Shown piece after piece: positions 10,658 to 55,392 of a stretch of DNA of 64,000 bases (position 1 is the first letter of the stretch; each line of letters begins with the position of its first letter). The notes under the pieces were generated by a model, which worked only from the letters and a program-made list of their open reading frames with translations, made no database searches and had not been told where the DNA came from. The translations under genes and the position numbers were made by a program. Origin of the DNA: Candidatus Poribacteria bacterium (GTDB lineage: Bacteria; Poribacteria; WGA-4E; WGA-3G); the NCBI GenBank assembly GCA_964291315.2, contig OZ219750.1:352001-416000 (forward strand), read 5' to 3'.

Positions 10658-11470
10658 ATGAAACTTAATATTGCTTTTTCCGGTAAGTTTTGGCTTACAT
10701 GTTTAGTCTTTGTTTTCAGTGTTTGGGGGACCTCTATCGTCTCTGCCGCAATCGATCCCGAGAATGTTGTCGGGTTGTGGCTTTTTGACGAAGGCAAAGG
10801 GAACGTCGCAACCGATGCATCCGAGAACGGATTGGACGGCGAATTCAAAGGGAGTCCGAAGTGGATTGATGATAAATTCGGGAAAGGACTTGAGTTAGAT
10901 GGTAAGTCCGCTTATGTTCAGATTCCGGCGCACGATAACCCGAATGACGCAATCACCGTTTCAATCTGGGTTAAAAGCCTGAGCCCGACTTGGAACGAAA
11001 ACGGCTGGATGGTTGAAAAGAGACCCGCATATATCATTCATCCTAACTCAGGAACCCAAAATGTTTCTTGGCCGGTTTGTAATGGGGGCTGTTGGAATAA
11101 ACCCGGAGAGTGGCGCGACGGCGAAATCGGTCCGGGGGATATTGAAGAGTGGCACATGTACACCACTACTTTTGATAGTGAAAGCGGCGAGTGGTATATC
11201 TATATCGATGGAAAAATGGCGAGCGATATGAAGATCGCCAAAAATCCGCTGGATGCAGACAGCGGCCCCGTCAATATTGGGTTTGACGACTGCTGTGGTG
11301 GTACACGATATGGTTCCGCACTCGTCGATGAAGTCGTCATTTTAGATGTTGCTTTGGAAGAAGCTGACATTCAAGAAATGTATGACCAAGGCCTCTATTT
11401 GTCGGTACTGGCAGTTGAGCCTGCCGACAAGATGACGACGACTTGGTCGAACGTAAAAATTAAGTACTAA
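10658..11470 (+). CDS. secreted LamG-like jellyroll (concanavalin A-like) protein with conserved C-terminal tail
   Basis: Signal peptide; GLWLFDEGKG..ATDAS..G, KFGKGLELDG, TVSIWVK, YIDG, DEV motifs; ends LAVEPADKMTTTWSNVKIKY. Confidence 0.88.
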   Translation: MKLNIAFSGKFWLTCLVFVFSVWGTSIVSAAIDPENVVGLWLFDEGKGNVATDASENGLDGEFKGSPKWIDDKFGKGLELDGKSAYVQIPAHDNPNDAITVSIWVKSLSPTWNENGWMVEKRPAYIIHPNSGTQNVSWPVCNGGCWNKPGEWRDGEIGPGDIEEWHMYTTTFDSESGEWYIYIDGKMASDMKIAKNPLDADSGPVNIGFDDCCGGTRYGSALVDEVVILDVALEEADIQEMYDQGLYLSVLAVEPADKMTTTWSNVKIKY

Positions 11471-11513
11471 AATAGGTCGCAAGTTGTCTAATATTGAAGT
11501 ATTGAAGTTGTGT

Positions 11514-11558
11514 GGCGAACGGGCATCCTCGTAGGGCCCAGTGTGTGGGCCGTTCGCC
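11514..11558. repeat. intergenic inverted repeat/stem-loop
   Basis: GGCGAACGG ... CCGTTCGCC arms with inner GCCCA/TGGGC pairing. Confidence 0.5.
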
Positions 11559-11681
11559 TACATGTGCCGTTGGATACCGCGCCTTATCCTAAGCTTCTGC
11601 TATGGATTCAACACGACCATGAATTGCAGATTTGCTGTACACAATACGGTGTGGTGTAAAAAGTAGGTAACGGAGGAACAG

Positions 11682-12281
11682 ATGTTATTTGACTACGACA
11701 AAGTAGATGGATTTGATGATGAACCACGGGATTTATTGTTAGAGGTAGAAGGGGATCCTGTTAACGTTGACGATGAATTGTTTGAAGATGAAGATTTTCT
11801 TAAAGCAGAACCCGATAGAGTAGATAGAAAAGACGGTGATGGTGATGACAACGATGAGTCCACTTCGGATGACCGAATTGTGCAAATGTGGGGTGGTGAC
11901 AAGTTGAAAGAGGTTGTCTCATCATCTGTGGCTATAGCGGTGCAGCGGAACGCGCTTTTTCAAAGTTATGAACGGAACAACCATGCTTATGCAAATGCTG
12001 TTATAGCCTATTATGAGGAGAAGAATTATCAGCGTGCGATCGAAAAATTTGACGAAGCCATCAAGGATGCGTTCGAACGGACAGTGCACGATCTGACCGA
12101 GGAGCAAGCCGACGAGATCATCGCGAAATCAATGTACTGGCAGGCGGAGGCTTACATCAAAACGCAAGATGTTCCGAAAGCACTTGAGATTTTCAGGTCC
12201 CTCGTTCAAGATTGTCAGGGGCATTATCTTGCGTTGGCTGCACAACGCAGAGTAGACGAGTTGAGTGCTAAGGACTCTTAA
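11682..12281 (+). CDS. TPR-repeat protein with acidic N-terminus
   Basis: YANAVIAYYEEKNYQRAIEKF and SMYWQAEAYIK TPR-like helices; GGAGG RBS. Confidence 0.75.
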   Translation: MLFDYDKVDGFDDEPRDLLLEVEGDPVNVDDELFEDEDFLKAEPDRVDRKDGDGDDNDESTSDDRIVQMWGGDKLKEVVSSSVAIAVQRNALFQSYERNNHAYANAVIAYYEEKNYQRAIEKFDEAIKDAFERTVHDLTEEQADEIIAKSMYWQAEAYIKTQDVPKALEIFRSLVQDCQGHYLALAAQRRVDELSAKDS

Positions 12282-12346
12282 ACCTTAGCAGGTCTTAGTG
12301 CATCGTTCACAGTCCAACATACAAAGAAAAAGGATTAACGAAATCT

Positions 12347-14197
12347 GTGGATACTTTGAAAAACACACTTAAACAAAAGGCAACTAATTTACGGATACAT
12401 TCTATTGCCTCCACATCGGAGGCGGGTTCGGGGCACCCGACTACATGTCTCTCTGCTGCAGATATTGTCTCTGCGCTCTTTTTTCATGTTATGCGCTATG
12501 ACGTTACCGATGCGCAGAATCCGAATAACGATAGATTCATATTATCCAAGGGACACGCCGCTCCTCTTCTTTATGCCGCTTATGCGGAGGCGGGTATCCT
12601 CCCGGCTGACAGACTACACACGCTGCGGCAAATTGATAGTATTTTGGAAGGGCATCCAACGCCTCGGTTTGAATGGACGGAAGTGGCGACAGGGTCCCTC
12701 GGACAAGGCTTATCTCTTGGACTCGGCATGGCTCTCAACGGCAAATGTTTGGAAGCGTCTGATTACCGCGTTTACGTCCTCCTCGGAGATGGCGAGACTG
12801 CTGAAGGCGGAGTCTGGGAAGCGGCGGCTTTAGCATCCCACTACCAGCTCAATAATTTGATTGGAATCATTGATGTCAACGCCCTTGGGCAAAGCCAGCG
12901 GACTATGTACGCCTTTGATATTGATACGTACTGCCGTCGTTTTGAGGCGTTTGGATGGCAAACGATCGGTATTGATGGACACGATTTTGATGAAATTCTA
13001 CCCGCGTTTGCCAAAGCTAAAGCCTCAGTGGATAGTCCGACAATGATAGTTGCTAAAACCTTTAAGGGCAAAGGAGTTTCATTTCTCGAAAACGCAGACA
13101 ATTGGCATGGAAAGGCAGTTGCTAAAGGCGAGGATCTTGATAAAGCGTTAGCGGAGCTCGGCCCCCTGCGTGCAGATGTTCCGCTTCAGATTCAGTCGCC
13201 TCATCTGATAAGAGTAAAGTCAGACAGTGCGATTCCGACTGAGTGTGAGGCCCCAGACTATTTGCCGGGCGAAGCAGTCGCGACGCGTAGCGGATACGGA
13301 ACTGGACTTGCTAAACTTGGTACTGTGAACCGGAATGTCGTTGCCCTCGACGCTGATACGAAAAACTCTACCTATGCAGAGCAATTTATGGCGCTCCATC
13401 CTGACCGGTACTTTGAGATGTTTATCGCAGAACAGAATTTGGTCGGAGCAGGTATCGGTTTAGCGAAACGTGGGAGAATTCCATTTGTTTCTACATTCGC
13501 TGCGTTTTTATCGCGGGCCTACGATCAGATCCGGATGTCCGCTATCTCCCAGGCCAATATTAAATATGTTGGATCCCACTGTGGAGTGTCAATTGGCGAG
13601 GATGGTCCCTCACAGATGGGTTTAGAGGACATCGCAATGTTCCGGGCAATACCGGGGGCAGCCGTGCTCTATCCGAGTGACGCGGTTTCTGCGGAGCGTC
13701 TGGTTACAGAAGCTGCTGCACACCAAGGCATTGTTTACCTCCGCATATCACGTCCAACAACCCCGATTCTCTATGATGCTAATGAAACTTTTCCGATTGG
13801 CAAGTCTAAGATCCTGCGTAGAAGTGATGCAGACAAAGTGACCGTCATAGCTGCGGGTGTAACCGTTCATGAGACCCTTAAAGCGCATGAAATACTTTCG
13901 AGAGAAGGCGTTGCTATTCGCGTGCTTGACCTCTACTCTATAAAGCCGGTTGACAAAGAAGCATTACAGTCGGCAGCATCTGAGACGAATAATATCTTAA
14001 TCACTGTTGAGGACCATTATCCGGAGGGCGGGCTGGGAGATGCGGTGTTGGATGCTGTCGCCTCTGACGGTGTTTGTGTCCATAAGCTTGCGGTTACAGG
14101 AATACCACGCTCCGGAAAACCTGAGGAACTCTTGGAACGCCACGGTATTAGTGCAAACGCTATTGTGCAGAAGGTAAAACAGATCTGCTCACTATAG
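12347..14197 (+). CDS. tkt: transketolase (single-chain, ~620-aa type)
   Basis: SGHPT, DRFILSKGHAAP, ATGSLGQG, TPP motif GDGE..EG, GEDGPSQMG, TVEDHY. Confidence 0.96.
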   Translation: MDTLKNTLKQKATNLRIHSIASTSEAGSGHPTTCLSAADIVSALFFHVMRYDVTDAQNPNNDRFILSKGHAAPLLYAAYAEAGILPADRLHTLRQIDSILEGHPTPRFEWTEVATGSLGQGLSLGLGMALNGKCLEASDYRVYVLLGDGETAEGGVWEAAALASHYQLNNLIGIIDVNALGQSQRTMYAFDIDTYCRRFEAFGWQTIGIDGHDFDEILPAFAKAKASVDSPTMIVAKTFKGKGVSFLENADNWHGKAVAKGEDLDKALAELGPLRADVPLQIQSPHLIRVKSDSAIPTECEAPDYLPGEAVATRSGYGTGLAKLGTVNRNVVALDADTKNSTYAEQFMALHPDRYFEMFIAEQNLVGAGIGLAKRGRIPFVSTFAAFLSRAYDQIRMSAISQANIKYVGSHCGVSIGEDGPSQMGLEDIAMFRAIPGAAVLYPSDAVSAERLVTEAAAHQGIVYLRISRPTTPILYDANETFPIGKSKILRRSDADKVTVIAAGVTVHETLKAHEILSREGVAIRVLDLYSIKPVDKEALQSAASETNNILITVEDHYPEGGLGDAVLDAVASDGVCVHKLAVTGIPRSGKPEELLERHGISANAIVQKVKQICSL

Positions 14198-14239
14198 CAA
14201 CAAACAGGCGACTATAAACGCGGTTGGAGATCGCGATGA

Positions 14240-14614
14240 GTGTGTATCTATATGCGGAACACAATTGTTTGGATTGTGGTCTTAGGGAGCATCCTGCTTG
14301 TAGGCATCGGGATGATTTACGCGCTACGAGTTTCACGTATCGCCCCCAAAACTTATCCAGCTGATAAGGGCCCTAACTTCATTGATGTTACCGACTATCC
14401 GCCTAAAATGCAAGAGTCTTACGAGCTCTTTACCCGTAAGTGTAGTCGGTGCCATACTGTTGCGCGTCCAATTAACGCCAGATTTGCATCAGAAGAATGG
14501 CGGAAATATGTATATAAAATGATGAAGAAGCCAGGATCAGGGCTTACACTGAAAACAGCTGATCGGATAATTGAGTTCCTTGTCTACGATTCACAAAATA
14601 GAGAAAAGAAATGA
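14240..14614 (+). CDS. membrane-anchored monoheme cytochrome c
   Basis: N-terminal TM helix, CSRCH heme motif, distal Met (KMMKKPG); start may be 14252. Confidence 0.8.
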   Translation: MCIYMRNTIVWIVVLGSILLVGIGMIYALRVSRIAPKTYPADKGPNFIDVTDYPPKMQESYELFTRKCSRCHTVARPINARFASEEWRKYVYKMMKKPGSGLTLKTADRIIEFLVYDSQNREKK

Positions 14615-15750
14615 ACATTGCAACATGGAATTACAAAAATCGTTATGCCCTGATGTTTTTAACGTTTACAGTATTGTTCTGCGGGATAGGCTTGCAAATG
14701 GGGAACACCCAAGAGGATGCTATGAAACGCGCCGGTTTTCAGATGTCAATAGATAGTCAGCTTGTGTTATTTACTGCCCCTCCTGTCTTAAAAGAGGGGG
14801 TCTGGTTAGTACCTTTAGAGCGTTTTGCGAAGCAGCTTGCGTTAAAAGTAGAGTATTCCGGGGAGAAGGAGATAGTAACTCTCTGCGGCGGGGAGGAGTC
14901 TGAGCGCTGTGTACTGCTTCGATTTCAAGATGGCATTAACGGGGTTTGGGATATTGATGGTATAACTTATGTTCGACCAGCGACCGTTACAGAACCTTTT
15001 GGTTTTGAAATTTACGAATTCTCACTAAACCGGCTGGAGGTTCTCCGGACCTCACACCTCGCTCCAGAGTTTACGCTCCCGGATCTTCAGAATACCGCTA
15101 GGCGTTTGCGAGATTTTCGCGGAAAAAAGACCTTTCTTTATGTTTGGGGTTCTTGGTGAGGGTGTCGTGAGCAGCTGCCAGGCTGGCAGGAATTTTACGC
15201 CAAACACAAGGAGAAGCTAAACCTTGTCTCTATCGCCCTTGATGCACAAGGTGCCTCTGTCGTCCGTCCTTGGCATGATGCAGCGAACGCTGATTTCGTC
15301 ACGCTTGTTGATTCACAGAATATATTCGGCACTCATTATGCCCTCAAAGCTGTTCCGTACGGTGTCATGATTGATGAGGTTGGACGTCTGGTTAAGGCTC
15401 CTTTCAACGTCAATATTAAGGATGAAGCGACCCTTGTTATGCTTGAAAAATGGCTTTCCGACCCGCACTATAATGCAGTACTGCTTCGTAATTCGAAACG
15501 CTCAGATGATTGGGTTGACCAGACTATCAGTGAAGTTGATGCTCGTTTTCAACTCGGCCTTGTCTTGCTCAAAAGCGGAAAAAAACAGGAAGCGATGGAA
15601 GAGTGGCGAAAGGCACTTGCCTTGGATCCGCACAACTGGATTATTCATAAGCAAATTTGGGCGGTTGAGCACCCTGAAAAATTCTATGAAGGAGCTGTGG
15701 ATTATCAGTGGCAGAAGGCGCAGTTGGCTGAAGAAAAAGGTAAGGAGTAA
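14611..15750 (+). CDS. probable selenoprotein: exported ResA/TlpA-like redoxin (W-U-G-C motif) with N-terminal Cu-amine-oxidase-N-like domain and C-terminal TPR
   Basis: ORF 14611..15159 ends APEFTLPDL..RGKKTFLYVWGSW-TGA; the frame continues without stops as GCREQLPGWQEFY..VSIALD..LVDSQN into ORF 15367..15750; SECIS-like hairpin follows the TGA. Confidence 0.85.
15175..15189 (+). promoter_or_regulatory. putative bacterial SECIS hairpin
   Basis: CTGCCA-GGC-TGGCAG, starting 15 nt after the TGA at 15157-15159, with G in the apical loop. Confidence 0.6.
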
Positions 15751-16214
15751 AGAAGGCTTCAGGGGGCGCTCTTCTTTTGGGAAAAGCGATTCCCTGTTAA
15801 GTTGGAATATTTTTGCTGGTTTTGTGCCGGTGTTTTTGAGTTTTGTAGATATTTTGTGTATATGGAAGTATTTTTGTTTTAACCGTTGCTGTTGTGACCC
15901 TAGCGGAAATCAGTAAAACAGAAGCGGCTCTTACAGCGATAATCATTTGGGTATTGAGAGCCTGCATCCATGTTGTTTTCCAAGTTGGAGCTGCTTCTTA
16001 GGAACAGATATGTAAGAGAAGTGTAATTGTTAGGAAGCATCTATAAACCTTAGAATTCGTTGCCCACTCAGCTGGCGACAGGAGAAAACTGCATCTACCG
16101 GATTTCAGCAAACGTCCGGATCGAAACTAATAACTATACTAACTGCTGAATGTGGAGTACAGCAGAACGCCCTGACAGAAACCGATTGCTATATAATGTA
16201 GATGGAGGAAAACG

Positions 16215-19643: not shown

Positions 19644-19650
19644 TGATTAC

Positions 19651-19745
19651 CGACTGTCGGTTTTTGACCAAAGAGTGTTGTGGCAGGTGAGGACGTTTGC
19701 GATTGCTACATTGGTTACCGACAGTCGACGGCTGAGAGTCGAAAC
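19651..19745. repeat. intergenic palindromic element with heptamer-periodic flank
   Basis: Perfect 11-bp IR CGACTGTCGGT (19651-19661) / ACCGACAGTCG (19717-19727), inner TGTGGCA/TGCTACA pairing. Confidence 0.65.
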
Positions 19746-19754
19746 CTCTAAAAA

Positions 19755-21453: not shown

Positions 21454-22203
21454 ATGGCTCAGGATAAACAGATGACCTTTTGTAGATATTTCCTATTAAT
21501 GCTCGTTGTCGTTTTGAACTTTGTGATTGTGAGCGCTACAGTCGCGCAAGAAGTCTATATCCAAACAGGATTTGAAGAATTCGCTGTTGGTGTCCCACCT
21601 AAAGACTGGCAAACAACCGGGGGGGACTTTGAAGTTACTAAAGACACTGTCAAAACCGACGAACAAGCACTCGCTATCTTGGGCGGTGCGGATGGCGATG
21701 GGCTCGGTTTGCCTGTAGAAACCGATAATCCGATTCTCTCTGTCGAATTTTGGATTTATGTTGAAAGTGGCGGACGCTCTTTGAATGTCAAAGTTGCTTC
21801 TGCTGACAATATCGCTGAAAACAGTGGGGGCCCTTATATCAATTGGGATGCAGAGATGGTTCGTTTCTACGACGGTGCTGCCTGGCAACCTATTGCGGAC
21901 TTTGAGGCTGATACATGGAAGTACGTTCGTATCGTCGCTGATTTCGATAAGAGTGAATTCGGATTCACTTCAGGCGATAACAGAAACGATGCCTTGAATG
22001 CTAGAGCTGAAGACGGACTTGCTTTTCGGAATCCTGCACTCGCTCCTACTGCTAAATGGGTCGTCTTCTATCTGTGGGGCATGGCATCTCCAGCTTACGT
22101 TGATGATTTACTCGTTTATCAGGGCGCAGATCCGCTCGATCTTGCCGTTGATCCGAGTCAAAAACTGACCACATTTTGGAGCCAGGTTAAGCGAGAATTG
22201 TAA
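21454..22203 (+). CDS. secreted beta-sandwich protein with conserved C-terminal tail
   Basis: Signal peptide (TVA|QE), GFEE..., YVDDL; ends LAVDPSQKLTTFWSQVKREL. Confidence 0.8.
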   Translation: MAQDKQMTFCRYFLLMLVVVLNFVIVSATVAQEVYIQTGFEEFAVGVPPKDWQTTGGDFEVTKDTVKTDEQALAILGGADGDGLGLPVETDNPILSVEFWIYVESGGRSLNVKVASADNIAENSGGPYINWDAEMVRFYDGAAWQPIADFEADTWKYVRIVADFDKSEFGFTSGDNRNDALNARAEDGLAFRNPALAPTAKWVVFYLWGMASPAYVDDLLVYQGADPLDLAVDPSQKLTTFWSQVKREL

Positions 22204-24505: not shown

Positions 24506-27310
24506 CTATTTATCAGCCGATTTGAGCTTACCCCACCGCGTTGTGAGTTTACCGCTTGCAGAGACCTCTCCCCGCAGATGCGTTGTCTGTAAAGTGGTGC
24601 GCACCCCGTCCATAGAGACATCTTCTATTTGATAGTAATAGATGGCATTCGGCTTCGCAGTGGTATCTGTGTAGGTATAGACGTGCTTCTCGGATGTCGT
24701 GCCGTGCCCCGCAATCAGACCTTTGGTGTTGATAACCGAAAAGTCTCCTGTCTTGCTCTCACTGCGTAGGATATTGAACCCTGCGTTATTGAGTTCGGAC
24801 TGTGTTATCCAGGTAATCTCAACGTGTCCTGTTGTGGTGTTGCGCACCGGGCGGAAACTCGAGAGCGAAACGGGTAGCGGTCCGCCGAGGCGGTAGCCGG
24901 GTGTGCCGACATCGTTGCGATGCCCGTAGAAGGTCAGCGCGTTCCCCATAAGGTCAGACTGCCGCCAAGAGGCTTCCATGAGCCCGGGATCCGCATCATG
25001 CGGTCCGGCGCCCATTGCCTTCTTGTTCATGTCGTTGAAGACCCCGCCATAGGTTCGCACAATAGATGTGCGCACCTCACCGCGTTCGGGCAGCTTCCAC
25101 GCTTGCATGCGCGTAGCGCCCTCTATCTCAACATTGCCGGCTTCGTCCACAATCGTCATCCCCGACTCCCCGGCTTCGTTGACTTTTGCCCGCAGCTCCA
25201 GATGAAAACCCTCCGCACTCAGCAACCGGCGCCCGCGCGTCGTCAATCCGAGATCGCTCTGGTGTTTTTCTTGTAGGTTGTAGACGTAGTTATCTGCCAC
25301 ATCGCTGGCACCGCTACCGGAGACCAGCAGCAATGTCTGATTCGGCGGGATATACGTTCCTGCGTCAAACGTGAGCGCTGCATCCACATACGCCTCTATG
25401 CTTGTGTCCTCGTTGCGGATTTCGAGTTCCCAGCCCTCAAGGTTTATGGTTTCAGTCATAGAGCTGTTGTAGAGTTCTATCCACTGCGCCAAGTTCCAGC
25501 GTGGCCCTGCGTCATACATAATCTCGCTGATACTGACCTTCCCGTCGAAGGCGTAGTCGTCAGCAGTGGATGCGGTATCTTTATCATCAGCGATTGTATT
25601 CACAGCCGTGTTGGGGTACCCCGGCGTGCCAGGGGAAGCGACTGTGTCAACGGATTTAGCGAGCCCGCGGTCGTAGCCGGCCCCCATGAACCCGAAGGTC
25701 TTCCAATCGTTTTTGTGAACGCGGTTCGCTTGTGACTTTGCCCAATACTTGCCTTGTGCGTTCAAGGCGACATCCCGCCCGAACGACATGGTTCGCGAGG
25801 CGAAAGTATTCGTACCGCCGAAGTCGTTATCATCAACGTCTCCCGGCTTCGTCCATCCCACGAACGGCCAGACATATGTATTGAACTTATTGTCTTCCAC
25901 TCGCTTGAAGAACCCGTTGCCGGCATAATCTTTGATATTTGTCGGCTTGCCAACGTCATCGGCGCTATCGCGCGTGCGCAGCAGGATCAGGAACTTCCCT
26001 TCAGCAGGTAGGTTCAGGTTCTTAGCGACCACATACTTGTGGGAGGCCCCTTTGTTGATGTCGGTTTTGTCCAAGAGGTCCTGGACGTTTTTACCCACAG
26101 CGAGGTCAACGTTCCTCTGGGGGTCTCGGTTATAGACGACGAGATACTCGCCGGGATTCATCTGATATTCAGGCAGCACGGCGAGGCTGGTGTCCGTGAA
26201 GTTGGCATCGCCTGACTCGTGATAACCGCTGCCGTCGTCCTTCATCTTGCCCATGACGAGGCTCAGCTCATAGTTCTTTATATTCACAGCGGCATCCGAG
26301 GCATTCTCGCTATTATAGAAGAGCTCTATCCAATCCAAGTTCGCACTTGACGTATCGTTGCGTACTTCGTTGATGATGATACCGGTAGGAGAGATAGAGG
26401 CAGGGTTCATAGCAAACCCTACTCCCGGCCCGCCAGGACCAGCCGAGTGAACAGCCCCCGGACTCCCTTTGTAATTGCCCTGGCCGTAATTATGCCGATA
26501 CTTAGAGGCTTCCCAGGAGGCTTCTGCGCTGCCGTCCCCGAGTCCCTTCAGTTTTCCGCCTTCGACTTTATATGCCTTGCCTGTGGCATCCAGCTCGATC
26601 TTCCGGTACATGGAGACCATATCCGTGGGAGCCGCACCTGTATCCGCGTCCCCGTCGGTATCACCGTCTGCCCCTTTCAGTTCCCATGCTTTGCCAAAAC
26701 GATCGATCGTGGCCACACGATCCATAACGACATACTTGCGTGCATCGGTATTCTCATTATCATCATCGTCCCACATAAACGTCTTACCCGGTTCGGGGAC
26801 AACGGCGGGATCCAACTGGCTATGGGTGCGATGCCTGATATAATCACTGACTTTCAAAGCACCGGTGTTATAGAGTTCAAGCCATTGGGCACTTGTTCTG
26901 TGCGGGGAATCCGTTCCCCAATTTACCTCGGTGATGATGACGCGGTGCTTCAGTGCCTTCAGATCGGCATCTGACGCGTCGGCTTTTAGGGTATAGTTGG
27001 CGGCGTTTTCGCCAATTTCGGTTGCTGTCGGCACGCGCATTGAAATTGTGATAGCACCGCCGCGCGTCAGTAACGCCTTCAGGTCCGCTAAATTAGTGTC
27101 AAGCTTCGCGTACACAGAGTTACTTATGAAAATATCCTCTTTCTCGAAAGACTTCATAATGAGCTCAAAACCTTTGTCTTTCTTGAGTTGAGTCCAAATA
27201 TAAAAGTCGTTGCTCTGACTGGCCAGACCGGACACAGCAAAAGCTTGTGTGGTTGCAAAGATAAAGGTGAGTCCTAAGACTACAAAAATCCTGATTTTAT
27301 CCCATAACAT
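24506..27310 (-). CDS. secreted multi-lamin-tail-domain (LTD) surface protein, promoter-distal copy
   Basis: Signal peptide; three LTD-like units (IITEV..QWLELYN; IINEV..DWIELF; ISEIMY..QWIELYN), SPGTPG, PLPVSLSSF Ig-like domain, tail GKLTTRWGKLK. Confidence 0.88.
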   Translation of the reverse strand: MLWDKIRIFVVLGLTFIFATTQAFAVSGLASQSNDFYIWTQLKKDKGFELIMKSFEKEDIFISNSVYAKLDTNLADLKALLTRGGAITISMRVPTATEIGENAANYTLKADASDADLKALKHRVIITEVNWGTDSPHRTSAQWLELYNTGALKVSDYIRHRTHSQLDPAVVPEPGKTFMWDDDDNENTDARKYVVMDRVATIDRFGKAWELKGADGDTDGDADTGAAPTDMVSMYRKIELDATGKAYKVEGGKLKGLGDGSAEASWEASKYRHNYGQGNYKGSPGAVHSAGPGGPGVGFAMNPASISPTGIIINEVRNDTSSANLDWIELFYNSENASDAAVNIKNYELSLVMGKMKDDGSGYHESGDANFTDTSLAVLPEYQMNPGEYLVVYNRDPQRNVDLAVGKNVQDLLDKTDINKGASHKYVVAKNLNLPAEGKFLILLRTRDSADDVGKPTNIKDYAGNGFFKRVEDNKFNTYVWPFVGWTKPGDVDDNDFGGTNTFASRTMSFGRDVALNAQGKYWAKSQANRVHKNDWKTFGFMGAGYDRGLAKSVDTVASPGTPGYPNTAVNTIADDKDTASTADDYAFDGKVSISEIMYDAGPRWNLAQWIELYNSSMTETINLEGWELEIRNEDTSIEAYVDAALTFDAGTYIPPNQTLLLVSGSGASDVADNYVYNLQEKHQSDLGLTTRGRRLLSAEGFHLELRAKVNEAGESGMTIVDEAGNVEIEGATRMQAWKLPERGEVRTSIVRTYGGVFNDMNKKAMGAGPHDADPGLMEASWRQSDLMGNALTFYGHRNDVGTPGYRLGGPLPVSLSSFRPVRNTTTGHVEITWITQSELNNAGFNILRSESKTGDFSVINTKGLIAGHGTTSEKHVYTYTDTTAKPNAIYYYQIEDVSMDGVRTTLQTTHLRGEVSASGKLTTRWGKLKSADK

Positions 27311-27441: not shown

Positions 27442-30321
27442 CTATTTATCAGCCGATTTGAGCTCACCCCACCGCGTAGTGAGTTTACCGCTTGCAGAGA
27501 CCTCTCCCCGCAGATGCGTCGTCTGTAAAGTGGTGCGCACCCCGTCCATAGAGATGTCTTCTATCTGATAGTAATAGATGGCATTCGGCTTCGCAGTGGT
27601 ATCTGTGTAGGTATAGACGTGCTTCTCGGATGTCGTGCCGTGCCCCGCAATCAGACCTTTGGTGTTGATAACCGAAAAGTCTCCTGTCTTGCTCTCACTG
27701 CGTAGGATATTGAACCCTGCGTTATTGAGTTCAGACTGTGTTATCCAGGTAATCTCAACGTGTCCTGTTGTGGTGTTGCGCACAGGCCGGAAGCTTGAGA
27801 GCGAAACGGGTAGCGGACCGCCGAGGCGGTAGCCGGGTGTGCCGACATCGTTGCGATGCCCGTAGAAGGTCAGCGCGGTCCCCATAAGGTCAGACTGTCG
27901 CCAAGAGGCTTCCATGAGCCCGGGATCCGCATCATGCGGTCCGGCGCCCATTGCCTTCTTGTTCATGTCGTTGAAGACCCCGCCATAGGTTCGCATAATA
28001 GATGTGCGCACCTCACCGCGTTCGGGCAGCTTCCACGCTTGCGTGCGTGTAGCGCCTTCTATCTCAACATTGCCGGCTTCGTCCACAATCGTCATCCCCG
28101 ACTCCCCGGCTTCGTTGACTTTTGCCCGCAGCTCCAGATGAAAACCCTCCGCACTCAGCAACCGGCGCCCGCGCGTCGTCAATCCGAGATCGCTCTGGTG
28201 TTTTTCTTGTAGGTTGTAGACGTAGTTATCTGCCACATCGCTGGCACCGCTACCGGAGACCAGCAGCAGCGTCTGATTCGGCGGGATATACGTTCCTGCG
28301 TCAAACGTGAGCGCTGCATCCACATACGCCTCTATGCTTGTGTCCTCGTTGCGGATTTCGAGTTCCCAGCCCTCAAGGTTTATGGTTTCAGTCATAGAGC
28401 TGTTGTAGAGTTCTATCCACTGCGCCAAGTTCCAGCGTGGCCCTGCGTCATACATAATCTCGCTGATACTGACCTTCCCGTCGAAGGCGTAGTCGTCAGC
28501 AGTGGATGCGGTATCTTTATCATCAGCGATTGTATTCACAGCCGTGTTGGGGTACCCCGGCGTGCCAGGGGAAGCGACTGTGTCAACGGATTTAGCGAGC
28601 CCGCGGTCGTAGCCGGCCCCCATGAACCCGAAGGTCTTCCAATCGTTTTTGTGAACGCGGTTCGCTTGTGACTTTGCCCAATACTTGCCTTGTGCGTTCA
28701 AGGCGACATCCCGTCCGAACGACATGGTTCGCGAGGCGAAAGTATTCGTACCGCCGAAGTCGTTATCATCAACGTCTCCCGGCTTCGTCCATCCCACGAA
28801 CGGCCAGACATATGTATTGAACTTATTGTCTTCCAGTCGCCTGAAGAACCCGTTGCCGGCGTAATCTTTGATATTTGTCGGCTTGCCAACGTCATCGGCG
28901 CTATCGCGCGTGCGCAGCAGGATCAGGAACTTCCCTTCAGCAGGTAGGTTCAGGTTCTTAGCGACCACATACTTGTGGGAGGCCCCTTTGTTGATGTCGG
29001 TTTTGTCCAAGAGGTCCTGGACGTTTTTGCCCATAGCGAGGTCAACGGTTGTCCGAGGGTCTCGGTTATAGACGACGAGATACTCGCCGGGATTCATTTG
29101 ATATTCAGGCAGCACGGCGAGGCTGGTGTCCGTGAAGTTGGCATCGCCCGACTCGTGATAACCGCTGCCGTCGTCCTTCATCTTGCCCCTGACGAGGCTC
29201 AGCTCATAGTTCTTTATATTCACGGCGGCATCCGAGGCATTATCGCTATTGTAGAAGAGCTCTATCCAATCCAAGTTCGCACTTGACGTATCGTTGCGTA
29301 CTTCGTTGATGATGATACCGGTAGGCGAGATAGAGGCAGGGTTCATAGCAAACCCTACTCCCGGCCCACCAGGACCAGTCGAGTGAACACCCCCCGGACT
29401 CCCTTTGTAATTGCCCGCGTGGTACTTATGCCGATACTTAGAGGCTTCCCAGGAGCTTTCTGCGCTGCCTTCCCCGAGTCCCTTCAGTTTTCCGTTTTCA
29501 TAGGCATACGCCTTGCCTGTGGCATCCAGCTCGATCTTCCGATACATAGAGGTCATGGCATTGTCAGGATCATTTGTATCCCTATCGGTAGGTCGATCAA
29601 TGGCAGTGGTAGAGGGATCAGCATCGGGCTCACCATCGGCGGTATCACCATCTGCCCCTTTCAGTTCCCAGTGCTTGCCAAAACGATCGATCGTCGCGAC
29701 ACGATCCAAAACAACAAACTTGCGGTCAGGTGTGTTCTCATTATTATCAGCGTCCCACATGAACGTCTTACCCGGTTCGGGGACAACGGCGGGGTCTAAA
29801 CTGGGATGTGTGCGCCACCTGATATAATCCTTGGATTTCAAAGTGCCTGCGTTATAGAGTTCAAACCATTGGGCACCGGTTCTGTGCGGGTAATCCGTTC
29901 CCCAATTCACCTCGGTGATGACGACGCGGTGCTTCATTGCCTTCAGATCGGCATCTGATGCGTCGGCTTTCAGGCTATGGTTGTCAGCTCCATCGGTGGT
30001 AATTTCGGCTGCTAGCGGCACTCGCATTGAGATTGTGATGGCACCGCCGCGCATCAGTAACGCCTTCAGGTCTGGCAAATCATCGATCTGCCGTCCCGTT
30101 ACACTGTTAAATAGACGTTCATTACTGGCAGGGGGCGAAGACTTACCGATAACAAGATTGATATGTTTCATAATGAGCGAAAAGCCTTTGGCTTTCCTGA
30201 GGGTGGGCCAATATTGATAATCTAAGGGATTCGTAAATGAAGTGATACCGAAAGCTTGTGTGGTTGCAAAGACAAACATGAAGCCTAAGACCACAAAAAT
30301 TCTGATTTTATTCCATGACAT
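27442..30321 (-). CDS. secreted multi-lamin-tail-domain (LTD) surface protein, promoter-proximal copy
   Basis: Paralog of 24506..27310; near-identical C-terminal two thirds, divergent N-terminus. Confidence 0.88.
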   Translation of the reverse strand: MSWNKIRIFVVLGFMFVFATTQAFGITSFTNPLDYQYWPTLRKAKGFSLIMKHINLVIGKSSPPASNERLFNSVTGRQIDDLPDLKALLMRGGAITISMRVPLAAEITTDGADNHSLKADASDADLKAMKHRVVITEVNWGTDYPHRTGAQWFELYNAGTLKSKDYIRWRTHPSLDPAVVPEPGKTFMWDADNNENTPDRKFVVLDRVATIDRFGKHWELKGADGDTADGEPDADPSTTAIDRPTDRDTNDPDNAMTSMYRKIELDATGKAYAYENGKLKGLGEGSAESSWEASKYRHKYHAGNYKGSPGGVHSTGPGGPGVGFAMNPASISPTGIIINEVRNDTSSANLDWIELFYNSDNASDAAVNIKNYELSLVRGKMKDDGSGYHESGDANFTDTSLAVLPEYQMNPGEYLVVYNRDPRTTVDLAMGKNVQDLLDKTDINKGASHKYVVAKNLNLPAEGKFLILLRTRDSADDVGKPTNIKDYAGNGFFRRLEDNKFNTYVWPFVGWTKPGDVDDNDFGGTNTFASRTMSFGRDVALNAQGKYWAKSQANRVHKNDWKTFGFMGAGYDRGLAKSVDTVASPGTPGYPNTAVNTIADDKDTASTADDYAFDGKVSISEIMYDAGPRWNLAQWIELYNSSMTETINLEGWELEIRNEDTSIEAYVDAALTFDAGTYIPPNQTLLLVSGSGASDVADNYVYNLQEKHQSDLGLTTRGRRLLSAEGFHLELRAKVNEAGESGMTIVDEAGNVEIEGATRTQAWKLPERGEVRTSIMRTYGGVFNDMNKKAMGAGPHDADPGLMEASWRQSDLMGTALTFYGHRNDVGTPGYRLGGPLPVSLSSFRPVRNTTTGHVEITWITQSELNNAGFNILRSESKTGDFSVINTKGLIAGHGTTSEKHVYTYTDTTAKPNAIYYYQIEDISMDGVRTTLQTTHLRGEVSASGKLTTRWGELKSADK

Positions 30322-46112: not shown

Positions 46113-46237
46113 AGTCGTTATCCTATTGTAAAGGGTTCGGTTGTCAGAAACGGGCATCTTTCTGACCTATAACCGGTGCAAGAAATCTCTGGTTTTTAAG
46201 CCTTTGGTCGGCAAGCACGAAAACCCTACCCTTAATT

Positions 46238-47377: not shown

Positions 47378-47535
47378 TTTGTATCTTAATGATACTACAA
47401 TTTGCGCGGTTCTGTCAAATCTTTATTTTCGTGGTTAGGGTTGTCTCTTTTTCCATTTTGTTGATTTTGGTAGGAGGAACTAGCAGCTGGAGGGTTACTC
47501 CTCCAAAAATTGTCGGGGTTCATGAATGGGGCTGT

Positions 47536-48294: not shown

Positions 48295-48387
48295 TCTTCA
48301 GCAAAATAGACAATTTTTTTCTTGCGTATCGGAGAAAGCGACCCCCGGCAGAGAGATGCGTTCGTCTGTGAGGTCGTCTATTTTCTA

Positions 48388-48840
48388 TATGATACGGGTC
48401 CCCGCTCGAACTTGGCGCAGTGGATAGAGCTCTACAACAGTTCTATGAGCGAGACGATAGACCTTGCGGGCTGGGAGTTAGAAATCCGCAACGAGCGGAC
48501 AGTGACTGGTTCGTATGTCAATGCGAAGTTCACATTTGATGCGGACACGTATCTGCCGCCGAATCAGACGTTGCTGCTGGTGTGGAACAATAGTGCGAAC
48601 GATGTTGCGGAGAACTACGTTTATAACTTGCAGGAGAATCACGGGAGTGCTCTGGGTTTGACAATGCGGGGGCGGCTACTGCTGAGTGCGGAGAGTTTCT
48701 ACCTGGAGCTGCGTGCAAAGGTCAGCGGAGGCGCTCCGACGGTTATGGACACAGCCGGCAACCTTGAGATAGCAGGGACGGTGCGCACCCAGGCGTGGGA
48801 TCTGCCCGAGCGCGGTGAGATGCGGATGTCTACTGTCCGT
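48388..48840 (+). pseudogene. partial copy of the LTD surface-protein gene (third LTD only)
   Basis: YDTGPRSNLAQWIELYNSSM..PPNQTLLLV..QAWDLPERGE matches the 24.5-30.3 kb genes; no signal peptide or C-terminal tail. Confidence 0.8.
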
Positions 48841-48872
48841 AGTGAAATATCTCTGAATGTTGCGTTTTTGGC

Positions 48873-48901
48873 TTGACTATGCATGTGTTATGTGTTATGT
48901 T
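48873..48901 (+). promoter_or_regulatory. possible sigma-70 promoter TTGACT-N17-TATGTT
   Basis: Upstream of AGGAGG RBS and ATG 48982. Confidence 0.5.
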
Positions 48902-48981
48902 ACTATCATTGACGCGACTCTATGGAATTTATCACATTTTCGTTAGATGTGTCTATTATCGGCAAATTAGAGGAGGTACCT

Positions 48982-50331: not shown

Positions 50332-50372
50332 CAAAAGATTGCTACAGCAGGCAATTTTTTAGGGGGTTAGGG

Positions 50373-51161
50373 ATGTCCATTAAAACAGTAGAAAAGGACT
50401 TTATTGATAAAGTCTCGGAGAAAATTAAGCTTTCAGCCGAGGGCAACGAACGTTTTCGTGTATTGAACCCTTTCCAATTCGAAGATGGCGATCAGTTAGT
50501 CATTGTCCTAAAAAGAGAGGGTAAGCGATGGATACTTTCCGACGAGGCACATACCTATATGCATCTCACCTATGAGATTGATGAGCGCCATCTGCATAAA
50601 GGGGAACGCCAGAAGATTATCTTAAACGCCCTTTCCATGTTTGATGTTGAAGATCGCAACGGGGAGTTAATACTTGATGTGTCCGATGGACATTATGGGG
50701 ACGCACTTTACGACTTTGTTCAGGCGCTTCTTAAGATAATAGACGTGTCATACCTGTCAAAAGAACGTGTTAGATCTACGTTTATAGAAGATTTTCGCGC
50801 AGTGTTGCATGAGCTGTTACATAAAAAGTTATCATATCCGAAAGAACGTGTGTTTTTTGATTGGTCGCATCGAAAGCTCGATCCACAGAAAAATTATAGG
50901 GTAGATTGTCGAATTAATGGGATGCCCGATTCTCTTTTTGTGTGCGCTCTTGCTAATGATAATAGGGCTCGTGATGCTACGATCGCATTACATCGGTTCA
51001 GAGAGTGGGGAGTGCCTTTTCGCCCACTAGGTATCATCAAAGATTCAAAAGCTATTAGTAATAGTGTATTGGCTCGTTTCGGCGATGTGTGCCAGCACTA
51101 TTTCATAGGTATAGATGAAAGCTACGCAAGTATTGCACACTATATAGATGAGAATACCTGA
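50373..51161 (+). CDS. DUF1828-domain protein
   Basis: PFQFEDGDQLVIVL..WILSDEAHT pattern; C-terminal YRVDCRING. Confidence 0.75.
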   Translation: MSIKTVEKDFIDKVSEKIKLSAEGNERFRVLNPFQFEDGDQLVIVLKREGKRWILSDEAHTYMHLTYEIDERHLHKGERQKIILNALSMFDVEDRNGELILDVSDGHYGDALYDFVQALLKIIDVSYLSKERVRSTFIEDFRAVLHELLHKKLSYPKERVFFDWSHRKLDPQKNYRVDCRINGMPDSLFVCALANDNRARDATIALHRFREWGVPFRPLGIIKDSKAISNSVLARFGDVCQHYFIGIDESYASIAHYIDENT

Positions 51162-51269
51162 AGTGATATATCGCCGCCACAATCTTTTGCGTAATAAGCG
51201 ATGGAATTCCTTGTTGGAGATAGACTTTATTTTTTGGAGATAAATTGTATAGTTTAAATAGGGAGCGTC

Positions 51270-52988
51270 ATGAACAAACTGTATTTTGGTGATAATCTTG
51301 AGATTATGCGGGAGATGGATGCCGGCCGCGTAGACCTGATTTGTACGGATCCGCCGTTCAATAGCGGGCGTGATTATAACTCGTTCCTCCGAGATTCGCT
51401 GGCGCAGAAAAAAGCGTTTCGAGATACTTGGGTGTGGAATACAGCTGCCCAAGATACCCGCGCAGATATTGAAAAGTATGCATGTAACAACAAGACTTAC
51501 AAAGCCCTTAATGAGTGCCTCAAGGGGTGCGATCTGCTGCTGAAACGTGCTGTGTCTGGTAAGAATGGGTCGATGCGCGCCTATCTCGCCTTTATGGGCC
51601 CCCGACTTGCCGAAATGCACCGTATTTTGACTGACACCGGAAGTCTCTATCTGCACTGTGATCCGACTGCAAATCATTATCTCAAAGGATTAATGGATGG
51701 TATTTTTGGGACAGAAAATTTCAGAAACCAGATTATCTGGAAACGCACTAAGGCACATAATAGCGGCAAACAGTATGGGCGGACGCACGACACTATCTTA
51801 TTTTATAGTAAGGGGGAGGAGTGGGTATGGAACCCTGTTTATGTGGCACATGATCCGGCGTATGTGAAGCGGGCTTATCGGCATCAGGATGAAAGAGGCC
51901 TCTACCAAGTTGTCGCTCTGACTGCCTCGGAAGTTAGTCTGGGCGAGTCTGGGCGGCCTTGGCGCGGGGTAAATCCGAGTAACATCGGCAGACATTGGAG
52001 TACGCCCCGTAGAGAAGCGTGGCCCGAAGACGTTGAACCGCCTGAAAATTATGAGGCTCTCTCGGTTCACGAAAAGTTGGATGCCTTGGACGCAAGTGGT
52101 TTGCTTTATTGGCCCCCAAAAGGTAATGTTCCAAGATTCAAAAGGTATCTGTCAACGTCTAAGGGAAGTCGGGTTCAGGATGTTATAACGGATATAAACC
52201 CTCTTACGGGCAATTCCAAGGAACGTCTCGGCTATCCTACGCAGAAGCCGCTTGCACTTTACGAACGCCTGATTGCAGCTTCCAGCAATGAAGGGGACCT
52301 TGTATTGGACCCGTTCTGTGGGTGTGGAACGACTATTGATGCAGCACATACCTTAAAGCGCGCTTGGCTCGGTATCGATTTAACGATTCTAGCGTTGGAT
52401 CCGATGCGTCAACGGTTGGCAGATCGGCACGGTTTACAACCCTCAGTGGATTACCAGATTGAGGGGTATCCCACGAATATGCAGGAGGTGCGCAGGCTCT
52501 TAAAAGCTGGAGATAAGCGGAAATATCACGACTTCTCGAACTGGGCGGTGACAAGGCTTGGATTGCAGCCGACGCAGGATGTGGGTGATGGAGGACACGA
52601 TGGTGTCGGGCATGTGACGTTGTGGAGTACGCAACGAATGAAAGAGACGAATGCCCGGATTCTCGCGGAGGTCAAAACAGGGAAACCCTCCATGACACAA
52701 GTGCGAGCGTTTTGTCAGGTGATGCGCGAGAACAACGCAGCGATTGGGATTTTTATTACGATCGAACCTGTCACTGCGGGGATGCGGCAACAGGCGGAGA
52801 ATATGGGTGTTTTTGAGCATAATGGACAGAGTTATCCGCGACTCCAGTTCTGGCAGGTCGATGATGCCTATTTTGAGAATCCGGAGCTTATTAACACGTT
52901 TATTCGATTGCCGATGGAGTGGCGGATTCGTCCGAGCCAGAAGTCTAATCGGCATTTTCGTGGGCAGCAGATGGAATTGTTGAAATAG
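51270..52988 (+). CDS. N4/N6 DNA methyltransferase (beta class) fused to Mrr-like endonuclease domain
   Basis: GDNL, DPPFNS, LYLHCD, GYPTQKP, VLDPFCGCGTT; C-terminal DGGHDG..AEVK. Confidence 0.9.
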   Translation: MNKLYFGDNLEIMREMDAGRVDLICTDPPFNSGRDYNSFLRDSLAQKKAFRDTWVWNTAAQDTRADIEKYACNNKTYKALNECLKGCDLLLKRAVSGKNGSMRAYLAFMGPRLAEMHRILTDTGSLYLHCDPTANHYLKGLMDGIFGTENFRNQIIWKRTKAHNSGKQYGRTHDTILFYSKGEEWVWNPVYVAHDPAYVKRAYRHQDERGLYQVVALTASEVSLGESGRPWRGVNPSNIGRHWSTPRREAWPEDVEPPENYEALSVHEKLDALDASGLLYWPPKGNVPRFKRYLSTSKGSRVQDVITDINPLTGNSKERLGYPTQKPLALYERLIAASSNEGDLVLDPFCGCGTTIDAAHTLKRAWLGIDLTILALDPMRQRLADRHGLQPSVDYQIEGYPTNMQEVRRLLKAGDKRKYHDFSNWAVTRLGLQPTQDVGDGGHDGVGHVTLWSTQRMKETNARILAEVKTGKPSMTQVRAFCQVMRENNAAIGIFITIEPVTAGMRQQAENMGVFEHNGQSYPRLQFWQVDDAYFENPELINTFIRLPMEWRIRPSQKSNRHFRGQQMELLK

Positions 52989-53019
52989 GTGTCGGTTATC
53001 CGCTTGTGTGCCAAAGGTG

Positions 53020-53733
53020 TTAGTGTCTTGTTTTGAGTTTCCCCCATATTGAAGTTAATCGGATCTCTGGTGTGATGCTTAGCCGGGAGATGGTGAAGGA
53101 GTCTGCCCATGCGGTGCCTTCCCACTCATTTGCGATGTTGATCCCCTCCATGACGAAACCGAGAATCTCTATTTTATCGAAATTGGCATCTTGAAATGCC
53201 GTGCGGAATTCTCCGTTTGCGAACAGTGTGAAATACCCGGAATTGAAATAGAGTTTCATCTCTGTTAGTACCTCGGTTTCCCAACGCGTGCGTGGTTCTC
53301 TGGAGAGTCGGATGCGGAAAGGGTGGCTGCTTCCTTTACCGTCGAAACGTCTTGCTCTGATTTCATCAGGGAAAAAAAGATAAAAAAATGGGTTTTCGTC
53401 AGGGGTGTCGGGAAATTGTCGTCCCACACAAAAGCCGAAGCGTGTCTTGTCGCTCCCCAGATCGTTTATTGTGACCACGAAGTTTCGATAGGGATCGGGG
53501 AATGCGATAAATCGGTAGAGCTCATATTCCACGTCCCATTCGCGTTTGACTTCTACACGGAGGAAGCCGTCTGTTATTTTCCAGAGGGAGTTGTTTCCTA
53601 CAACGCGCCACGCTTCGGGATTCTCGGTGTCGAAGTCATCGTGCCAGTCCTCGGTGAATGCCGGAAGGTGACAAGTGACGAGGATATAAACGGATATGAA
53701 GAGGCTTATGTTTCTGTTTGGTATGAAATGCAT
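53020..53733 (-). CDS. secreted jellyroll-like protein B2 with conserved C-terminal tail
   Basis: Signal peptide, WHDDF..W..WKITDG; paralog of 54703..55392; ends ITPEIRLTSIWGKLK; ORF is open from 53853. Confidence 0.8.
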   Translation of the reverse strand: MHFIPNRNISLFISVYILVTCHLPAFTEDWHDDFDTENPEAWRVVGNNSLWKITDGFLRVEVKREWDVEYELYRFIAFPDPYRNFVVTINDLGSDKTRFGFCVGRQFPDTPDENPFFYLFFPDEIRARRFDGKGSSHPFRIRLSREPRTRWETEVLTEMKLYFNSGYFTLFANGEFRTAFQDANFDKIEILGFVMEGINIANEWEGTAWADSFTISRLSITPEIRLTSIWGKLKTRH

Positions 53734-53825
53734 AGAATGCCCTCTACTTTGCGGGTTTGTTACCTGCTGATTTTTTATCGGGTGTGGTGACGAATCGCGC
53801 CTCCTGAGCTTTCGGAATCTACAGA

Positions 53826-54566
53826 CTAATTGATTTTTATGCAGTCGTACCACTGCTGTGTTTTCTTTCCTTTCCGGCTTAGGACCCCGGGTTCACGCTC
53901 GGTTGGGGGGCCAAAATCTCCATCGAGTTGTTTGAGGACGTTCCAATCGGGTGGAAACCATGTTTTGAGTGTTTTACAGTTAACCTCAAGAGTTTCCCCT
54001 TCCCAACCGCCGATTTTGTAATACATGGGGCATATCCACCGTTCTGCTCCGCGGGCGTACCGCCGCCAACCGATTACAGAGGCTTGTGCCCGAATAATGT
54101 TCCCGTCGCGCCAGTGTCGTTCAACGCCGCTCCATGGGTATCCGGTTGTTCCACCTCCGGCGCTGATCTCGCTCCACCCTAAATCGTCGTAGAGGGTGAT
54201 ATAGGAGGAGTTTGTACCCCAGGGTGTATCGTCTGTGCCGAAGTACCACCGTTGTCCGCGATACCAACGGACTGCCCCTTGAATGCGTGAGGCGGAAACC
54301 GTCGCGTTTTCAATGGTTTCTACGATGTCGAATTGCCCTCTGTTATTATAGGGGTTATGGGCACCCTTGCAGAGGGTGAGGGAATTGAGTTCCGGCCCGA
54401 ACCACATTCCGTCTACGCCCGGAGTTCTATAATAGGAACCTGAGCTGGGCGGATGGGCGCGTTCGCCGGGGTTTAGACGCGCTCTGGCGTGGCTATTCCA
54501 AAACGCAATACCGAGGACGAGGCAGAGGAGAAATGCATCAAAGATGATGTCTAAATTTTTTCGCAT
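53826..54566 (-). CDS. secreted Trp-rich hypothetical protein A2
   Basis: Signal peptide; paralog of 55416..56252; ends WYDCIKIN. Confidence 0.8.
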   Translation of the reverse strand: MRKNLDIIFDAFLLCLVLGIAFWNSHARARLNPGERAHPPSSGSYYRTPGVDGMWFGPELNSLTLCKGAHNPYNNRGQFDIVETIENATVSASRIQGAVRWYRGQRWYFGTDDTPWGTNSSYITLYDDLGWSEISAGGGTTGYPWSGVERHWRDGNIIRAQASVIGWRRYARGAERWICPMYYKIGGWEGETLEVNCKTLKTWFPPDWNVLKQLDGDFGPPTEREPGVLSRKGKKTQQWYDCIKIN

Positions 54567-54702
54567 TTTTACTGATTGTTGGTTAAGAGAGTTATGAATG
54601 AAAAAATTTTTAATAGGCTCTCAATGGTTAGCAGGCTAGCAGGCTCCAGCATCATTTGCTTTGGTTTTCACTGCCGTTCAAGCCAAACTACGCTCTTTCA
54701 GG

Positions 54703-55392
54703 TTATCTTTGCTTTAAACGTGCCCATGTGGTTGTTAGTTTCCGTTTTGGAGAGACTGGGAGTCCGTCTATGGTGATGGTATCGACCCACGCGCTGCCTA
54801 TATCCACGTCTTCTGCAACAAATCCAGCGAGGACAAAGGCGATGCTGTCAATCTGTTTAAAGTTGGCATCTCTGAAATCCATGCGAAGTTCTCCATCAGC
54901 CTGCAGTTGAAATCGGCCGCTTTCAAAGTGCAAGACCATCTGTTGGAGTTCATCCGTATTCCACCGTTTACCAGGGCCAACGAATATCCCTCCGTCTCTT
55001 GAGGCTTGCATATCGTTCGTGAAAAAGAGATAGTACCCGATCTCATCTACGTTGGTCACAGGATTCAGGAGGTGCTTTGCGAGTGCGATCCCGAATTGGG
55101 CGTGCGTCGCTCCTACGGTTTCAAGGGTTATTGTGAAGTTATCATAGGGCCCGGGGTAGGCGGTGAATTGGTACAGTTCAAATACAGTGTGCCATTGTGC
55201 TTGTGCGTGAATCTCTGCCTTCAAAAAACCGTCTTCAACTTTCCAAATAGCATCTTTTCTAGTGTATTGCCAGTCGTCTTCTGTGCTGTGTTCAAACGGG
55301 TCTTTCCAAGTAACGGCGCTGACATGCGTTTGGAAAACGAAAAATATATAAACAGTGAGGATTACTGTCAAAGTGCGTATGCTCTTCTTCAT
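54703..55392 (-). CDS. secreted jellyroll-like protein B1 with conserved C-terminal tail
   Basis: Signal peptide (VSA|VT), WKDPF..WKVEDG; ends LPVSPKRKLTTTWARLKQR. Confidence 0.82.
   Translation of the reverse strand: MKKSIRTLTVILTVYIFFVFQTHVSAVTWKDPFEHSTEDDWQYTRKDAIWKVEDGFLKAEIHAQAQWHTVFELYQFTAYPGPYDNFTITLETVGATHAQFGIALAKHLLNPVTNVDEIGYYLFFTNDMQASRDGGIFVGPGKRWNTDELQQMVLHFESGRFQLQADGELRMDFRDANFKQIDSIAFVLAGFVAEDVDIGSAWVDTITIDGLPVSPKRKLTTTWARLKQR

Follow-up and report, generated by a model that had tools for sequence, protein, structure and literature searches.

A short C-terminal tail on exported proteins of Poribacteria and its possible link to type IX secretion

Six genes in a 64,000-nucleotide stretch of a Candidatus Poribacteria genome (assembly GCA_964291315.2, contig OZ219750.1, positions 352,001 to 416,000 of the forward strand; hereafter the window, to whose numbering bare coordinates refer) encode exported proteins that end in the same short tail, which an original prediction made from the letters alone had put forward as an undescribed protein-sorting signal. 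On the forward strand, an exported LamG protein recognized by domain search (PF13385; 270 aa, 10658..11470) carries the tail LAVEPADKMTTTWSNVK (11408..11458), and an exported 249-aa protein of no known family, without a Pfam match (21454..22203), carries LAVDPSQKLTTFWSQVK (22141..22191). The other four genes are on the reverse strand. Two encode exported lamin-tail-domain (LTD, PF00932) proteins that are 88% identical, one of 934 aa (24506..27310; one of 27 tagged paralogues in the genome) with the tail GEVSASGKLTTRWGKLK (24521..24571) and one of 959 aa (27442..30321) with GEVSASGKLTTRWGELK (27457..27507). The last two exported proteins are 34% identical to each other; one (53020..53853, probable start at ATG 53733) ends in a divergent copy, LSITPEIRLTSIWGKLK (53032..53082), which scores 18.7 bits, and the other, of 229 aa and with a predicted ConA-like β-sandwich (54703..55392), ends in LPVSPKRKLTTTWARLK (54712..54762).

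As had been claimed, all six tails close 2–4 residues before the stop, with the final Lys at 3, 3, 4, 4, 3, and 2, and all six proteins begin with a hydrophobic stretch, in agreement with the proposed N-terminal signal peptides. The tail was also said to be absent from cytoplasmic proteins of the window, which holds; the sole extra match of a loosened pattern there was internal, in an unlisted 88-aa frame. The division of the six proteins into four families holds by sequence, with the two pairs described above, the LamG protein, and the protein at 21454, which has no BLAST match to the other five; structurally, however, there are fewer, since the body of 54703 is predicted to be a ConA-like sandwich, as is LamG. 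An AlphaFold2 model of this protein built from 100 sequences gave a β-sandwich with a mean pLDDT of 73, in which the tail forms a C-terminal helix of lower confidence (residues 191–201, pLDDT ~59), and Foldseek related the body to ConA-like lectins and glucanases (TM 0.3–0.5). A single-sequence fold of the same protein was dropped (pLDDT 38).

The tail is real, beyond chance. In the source genome (4.40 Mb, 95% complete), a regular expression matched 91 times at C-termini vs twice internally, both internal matches being in short junk frames; restricted to the last 22 residues, it matched 89 of 3039 open reading frames (ORFs) vs none in each of 20 shuffles. A hidden Markov model (HMM) built from 75 distinct tails and applied with a cut-off of at least 12 bits, the scan that had been proposed together with the prediction, gave 105 C-terminal matches and 1 internal match. 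The strictly C-terminal position is thus borne out in this genome, but sister genomes also contain the motif internally, directly before a C-terminal domain (CTD) like that of the T9SS (type IX secretion system). The 105 tagged proteins fall into 28 BLAST families. A signal-peptide-like start without a further transmembrane segment was found by a hydropathy rule, used in place of SignalP, in 96 of the 103 tagged proteins longer than 150 aa vs 566 of 2937 background ORFs, which bears out the anticipated co-occurrence; most of the seven that the rule missed show a signal peptide by eye. A lipobox-like string is present in one tagged protein, a Tat motif in none of the 105, and a 19-residue hydrophobic window past the signal peptide likewise in none of the 105.

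The consensus reads [LTF][APS]-V-[ED]-[PA]-x-x-K-L-[TA]-T-T-W-[GAS]-x-[LI]-K followed by 1–9 residues. Over the 17 residues of the 78 copies outside the LTD family, V/I and the last K/R are found in all 78 and the preceding K/R in 76; the Trp anchored this alignment, so that its own count is circular. The spacing is free of insertions and deletions. Because 5–13 variable residues follow the Trp, the carboxyl end itself is not the signal. Among 82 distinct helices, the mean hydrophobic moment was 0.32 and the net charge ~+2; the predicted helix would therefore be amphipathic to a moderate degree only. The cargo comprises LamG, CBM9, NPCBM, and 3keto-disac_hyd domains, PD40 and Kelch propellers, metallopeptidase-like proteins, and LTD proteins, a range that shows the tail not to be an integral strand of a single domain family, and 74 of the 105 tagged proteins consist of a single module and do not exceed 300 aa. 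Four divergent tails lie below the HMM threshold (e.g. LLTTLWGGIK and QIQQWGNIR; C1:123939-124946, C1:222813-223862, C4:363799-365229, and C4:1981050-1981862), two of them on PD40 propellers, and may be a second subtype.

The prediction had further held that the tail matches none of the T9SS CTD, PEP-CTERM, and LPxTG signals. This stands insofar as no library entry matched and no transmembrane helix is present, but comparison of the sequences indicates homology between the tail and the segment that immediately precedes the type A-like CTD in many Poribacteria proteins. In genome G003, AVEPSSKKITSLGQIKR sits directly before LLQNYPNP. A fusion pattern in which V-[EDNK]-[PA]-x8-[GA]-x-hydrophobic-K had to precede N[YF]PNP by exactly six residues gave 325 matches in 75 of 81 Poribacteria genomes, from seven of eight families, and its backward control gave none. 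The motif is present in 57 of 166 distinct junctions, a query-biased set, and the distance from K to NYPNP is six in all 57. Profiles of the tail and of the pre-CTD segment align (97.8%, E 9e-13), an agreement that is partly circular as the patterns build it in; positions that the patterns leave free agree as well: of 26 fused copies, 18 have Thr at −2, 20 have it at −1, and 15 have Gly at −6. Fused and tail-only copies differ systematically: at the Trp position, 80 of 100 fused copies have Leu, 9 have Trp, and 7 have Phe, and position −4 is polar in fused copies, whereas it is Leu in tail-only copies. The change from Trp to Leu when a CTD follows is as expected if the Trp takes over a recognition role. 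Constraint is stronger on tail-only than on fused copies, and the former show a signature of their own, K-L-small-T-T-W.

Tail and CTD are mutually exclusive in the source genome and alternate on one cargo domain. The type A-like CTD is found on 41 proteins, none of which carries the tail, and the shared cargo domain occurs in five tailed and seven CTD proteins that are 40–51% identical. As separate observations on these CTD proteins, an AAP string, a possible alternative cut site, is present in the pre-CTD linker of 19 of the 41, often followed by a long helical segment. Seven small paralogous CTD proteins (203–236 aa; C3:223348, C3:34978, C4:492495, 559170, 970339, 2045496, and 2226939) are also encoded; in at least three cases the position is directly upstream of a larger exported protein with neither CTD nor tail, so that they may be carriers.

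Kamke et al. (2014; PMC3909097) described Poribacteria with TIGR04183 domains and found no Por structural genes. Homology searches suggest that the Por-type machinery missed there is present in Poribacteria, with an unusually large PorV family. The source genome encodes three PorU-like C25 proteins, all with the His and Cys motifs, one SprA-like protein of 2242 aa, and 16 PorV-like barrels; C25 peptidases were found in 41 of 41 Poribacteria genomes, an SprA-like gene in 16 of 16, and 13–25 PorV-like barrels in 12 of 12. The T9SS-like set (one SprA-like, 2–4 PorU-like, and 13–25 PorV-like proteins) is represented at C4:564019-570747, C1:249558-255875, C1:481446-486719, and C4:526594-533007. In addition, L011:9219-11181 encodes the barrel closest to PorV, and a DUF5683 gene comes next in 7 of 8 loci of other genomes.

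A tree was made of ~100 PorV-like barrel sequences from nine genomes, taken among the matches listed (53 of 203 left out), and the statements on clades that follow hold among these matches. Most clades lie directly behind a CTD gene, and the CTD is divergent. Four widespread clades have no adjoining CTD gene (C4:1829410, C4:2067197, C4:1094657, and C4:1985354), and these are candidate readers of the tail. For the first of them, clade A, tagged genes (four) lie on the flanks in just one of seven genomes, G002. Another clade, F, which lies beside a tagged gene in the source genome, was rejected as reader, its clear orthologue being present in only 7 of 16 genomes.

The front of the tail resembles a PorU cut site. 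Measured PorU sites follow X/(GSA)(VLI), e.g. D/SVED and N/GVED (PMC4560394), and a PorU-type site PT/GI is described for short CTDs (PMC11969387). Fused copies have G, S, or A at the corresponding P1′ position in 24 of 26 cases, and often a Pro two residues before the would-be cut; tail-only copies have G, S, or A there in 51 of 76.

The tail is phylum-wide in Poribacteria and undescribed within the searchable literature. Its profile matched 61 of 61 Poribacteria genomes, with 19 to at least 134 copies each. A pattern scan of GTDB genome DNA gave at least 144 matches, 143 of 144 being C-terminal; among the 80 records listed, 78 are labelled Poribacteria and 2 'uncultured bacterium'. Among the best 150 matches in 1.84 billion representative proteins, 140 lie within 12 residues of the end and 5 at 13–28; the five multi-hit proteins in this set were set aside as unrelated repeats. 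No description of the tail was found in the literature, with subscription journals, figures, supplements, and tables S8/S9 of PMC3909097 outside the search. No entry of Pfam or NCBIfam matches the tail, and the best hit of its profile in a PDB sequence search was at chance level (E 0.98). A homologue of the 54703 protein, 75% identical, is named from Candidatus Poribacteria, and two unnamed clusters returned by the ESM Atlas for the tail (0.87 and 0.78) serve as leads only. Among sequencing runs, no RNA data set was listed as a holder.

Among known signals, PDZ-type motifs and the β-signal of the β-barrel assembly machinery (BAM) have one or more fixed last residues, unlike the variable end of the tail. 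LPXTG, PEP-CTERM, and GlyGly-CTERM signals consist of a short C-terminal motif, a transmembrane helix, and a basic end on unrelated exported proteins. The tail resembles these tripartite signals in being a short C-terminal tag with a motif and a basic end on unrelated exported cargo, but differs in lacking the transmembrane helix in 105 of 105 proteins and in matching none of the curated NCBIfam models. With the T9SS type A CTD (TIGR04183 / PF18962, in Poribacteria in its FlgD_ig-like PF13860 form) it shares an extreme C-terminal position, diverse signal-peptide cargo, and the same cargo domains, in addition to the cut-site-like front and the homology to the pre-CTD segment. The type A CTD, however, is a β-sandwich of ~90 residues, whereas the tail is a predicted helix of 17–20 residues; TIGR04183 / PF18962 matched none of the six window proteins and none of 76 tails, and the tail does not belong to the type A CTD family.

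There are precedents within type IX secretion. The short CTDs of Prevotella intermedia (43–55 aa; PMC11969387), which were cut and were modelled on PorV, are shortened T9SS signals that keep a cut-site motif and coexist with long CTDs; they retain a three-stranded sheet with motifs B, D, and E, whereas in the tail this sheet is lost and what precedes it is kept. The type B CTD with PorP/SprF, PorZ-PorQ, and PorU-PorV are a precedent for separate signal classes, each with its own PorV-like barrel and left uncut (PMC10202324). Most PorV-like clades of Poribacteria, lying behind a CTD gene, resemble the type B pairs of that source; in contrast, the type B, PorZ, and PorU signals described there are folded domains encoded beside their barrel, and tagged genes are scattered, without an adjoining barrel.

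A sister tail of other uncultured bacteria, likewise undescribed, x[TV][PAG][VTA][ER]xx[ST]WGx[VI]KxLYR, emerged as 126 stretches from a metagenome scan for [ST]WGx[VI]KxLYR-stop, its L-Y-R end being fixed by the search pattern. It shares with the Poribacteria tail the core [ST]-W-G-x-[VI]-K, the C-terminal position, and signal peptides (signal-peptide-like starts in 43 of 57 complete ORFs), but the Val-to-Trp spacing is 5 vs 10 and the best score to the Poribacteria model is 14 bits. Pro occupies the would-be P1′ in 72 of 126, and a CTD protein is encoded in 9 of 125 loci. The sister tail is likely homologous to the Poribacteria tail.

We are strongly inclined to conclude that the tail works like a C-terminal sorting signal. 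Original suggestions of a tag for a lineage-specific export or anchoring machine are upheld insofar as it is a portable, lineage-wide C-terminal tag without a transmembrane segment, predicted helical and present on unrelated exported proteins; as to the machine, we infer that the phylum's own T9SS-like system is likelier than a wholly new one, because the tail is homologous to the pre-CTD segment. On balance, homology, cargo exchange, and gene content make it somewhat probable that the tail is a free-standing pre-CTD segment acting as a miniature sorting signal of this T9SS-like system. The sequences support a first step of Sec-type export to the periplasm, without lipobox or transmembrane anchor. 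The cargo would then fold, leaving the tail to hang off, made up of a short linker and an amphipathic K-L-x-T-T-W-G-x-L-K helix, in which the Trp helix may stand in for the missing β-sandwich and be bound by a T9SS carrier. That the binding partner is one of the four phylum-wide PorV-like barrels without an adjoining CTD gene is the likeliest option, though in itself a doubtful one; docking of the tail in trans on another cargo's CTD, with which it would be carried along, seems distinctly improbable, the rest of the likelihood falling to other T9SS readers such as PorU or SprA. Passage would proceed via the SprA-like translocon and, probably for only part of the cargo, a PorU-like sortase would cut at x/[AS]-V-[ED] and attach or release the lectin-like module; those copies that have Pro or Asp in the cut position would probably stay uncut on the carrier, as reported for PorZ and type B cargo.

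Several observations weigh against this assignment to type IX secretion. The fusion pattern matched nowhere in the source genome, where tagged genes are also no more frequent beside CTD genes than expected (2 observed vs 2.7), and tagged genes do not consistently flank any PorV-like clade. The SprA and PorU matches score below curated cut-offs, and GldM and GldN were not detected in a search for these two whose control matched nowhere either. The tail is helical in the AlphaFold2 model and not a sheet, and its logo shows none of the CTD motifs B, D, and E, which contact PorV (PMC11969387). Pro stands at P1′ in 18 of 76 tail-only copies, all 27 LTD-family tails have D, E, or N there, so that none of the 27 fits the cut site, and only five of the NYPNP-type CTDs of the source genome have [GSA][VIL][ED] within 35 residues upstream. 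Given these misfits beside the 51 fitting tail-only copies, cleavage at the tail front is plausible for part of the cargo only.

Lys, Leu, and Trp are invariant and their spacing is fixed, which suggests a protein pocket, and such a pocket might belong to a non-T9SS envelope protein, either a periplasmic or surface scaffold or a phylum-wide secretin system, with the tail as its docking peptide and the copies before CTDs as docking tags chained to an export signal. A secretin is encoded in 20 of 20 Poribacteria genomes and beside three tagged genes in the source genome, where 7 of 10–11 CRTAC1/ASPIC-UnbV genes have a tagged gene no more than two genes away (baseline 10%). The secretin linkage, however, proved to be synteny at the family level, tagged genes lying within ~7 kb downstream in only 4 of 17 regions, all in the family of the source genome. 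CRTAC1 was likewise rejected as a universal reader, as only 7 of 23 such genes in three other genomes showed the adjacency, and in G002 a single one stands against ~95 tails; its enrichment next to tagged genes suggests shared operons for a subset. Since a chained tag is also not expected to lose its Trp in about nine of ten fusions, we regard docking outside type IX secretion as unlikely. A direct interaction of a basic amphipathic helix with the membrane, lipopolysaccharide, or another envelope polymer, without a protein reader, would suit the net positive charge, the Leu, Trp, and Leu at i, i+4, and i+7, and a cargo that has no other anchor; we consider it very unlikely in view of the low hydrophobic moment, the indel-free spacing, and the conservation, beyond what lipid binding needs, of V-[ED]-P, of T-T, and of the small residue that follows the Trp.

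Less likely still is that the tail oligomerizes single-domain lectin-like modules, in homogeneous or mixed bundles, and so raises avidity. The prevalence of single modules and the clustering of tagged genes (46 of 105 adjoin another tagged gene vs 7 expected) would agree with this, but a helix of 11 residues is generally short for a stable bundle, and the cut-site-like front and the fixed position before CTDs would be left unexplained. A functionless remnant of repeated CTD loss, finally, would account for the clear homology to the pre-CTD segment, but it is largely refuted by the conservation data and has, in our judgement, a negligible chance of being correct: tail-only copies are the more constrained ones, the tail columns of one family are 92–100% conserved vs 85% for the body, and the copies are numerous in every one of the 61 genomes.

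Further observations concern the surroundings of tagged genes. The two tagged ConA-like genes of the window belong to a two-gene cassette in tandem (53020-56252, reverse strand), an untagged gene lying directly upstream of each; these untagged genes (55416-56252 and 53826-54566, reverse strand) match no Pfam family and are alike at their C-termini. At 48322-48876 on the forward strand, a 184-aa fragment is 81% identical to part of a 950-aa LTD family and has neither signal peptide nor tail, and further stray tail fragments are present at C4:570979, C4:2059474, and C4:3181868. At L013:17215-18807, L018:6475-8139, and nine further loci of the source genome, CRTAC1/ASPIC-UnbV genes are grouped with tagged lectin-like genes, and often also a TPR gene, in operon-like units; some metagenome homologues of the CRTAC1/ASPIC-UnbV genes themselves carry the tail plus a CTD (P0295, P0310).

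Taken further, the assignment to type IX secretion would imply a fourth class of T9SS signal, a peptide of fewer than 20 residues without a folded domain, used in Poribacteria and probably in several other uncultured phyla with the sister tail; 100–300 small lectin-like modules per cell would cross the outer membrane via a T9SS that lacks a recognizable GldM/N motor and has an enlarged PorV family, either on a barrel of their own or by completing the CTD of another cargo in trans. We offer this as a possibility that falls somewhat short of probable. In the literature compared here, the T9SS signals described are all folded β-domains; if the proposal is true, a peptide in place of a folded domain would make the minimal T9SS signal smaller and might be of use as a small tag for display. 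The findings also bear on the puzzle left by the 2014 genome paper (PMC3909097), of Poribacteria with Por-type CTDs but no Por machinery, and four named candidate readers are now available. In an abundant sponge symbiont, ~3% of the genes, mostly for modules of sugar-binding type, bear the tail, so that much of what these cells may display to their host is defined by it.

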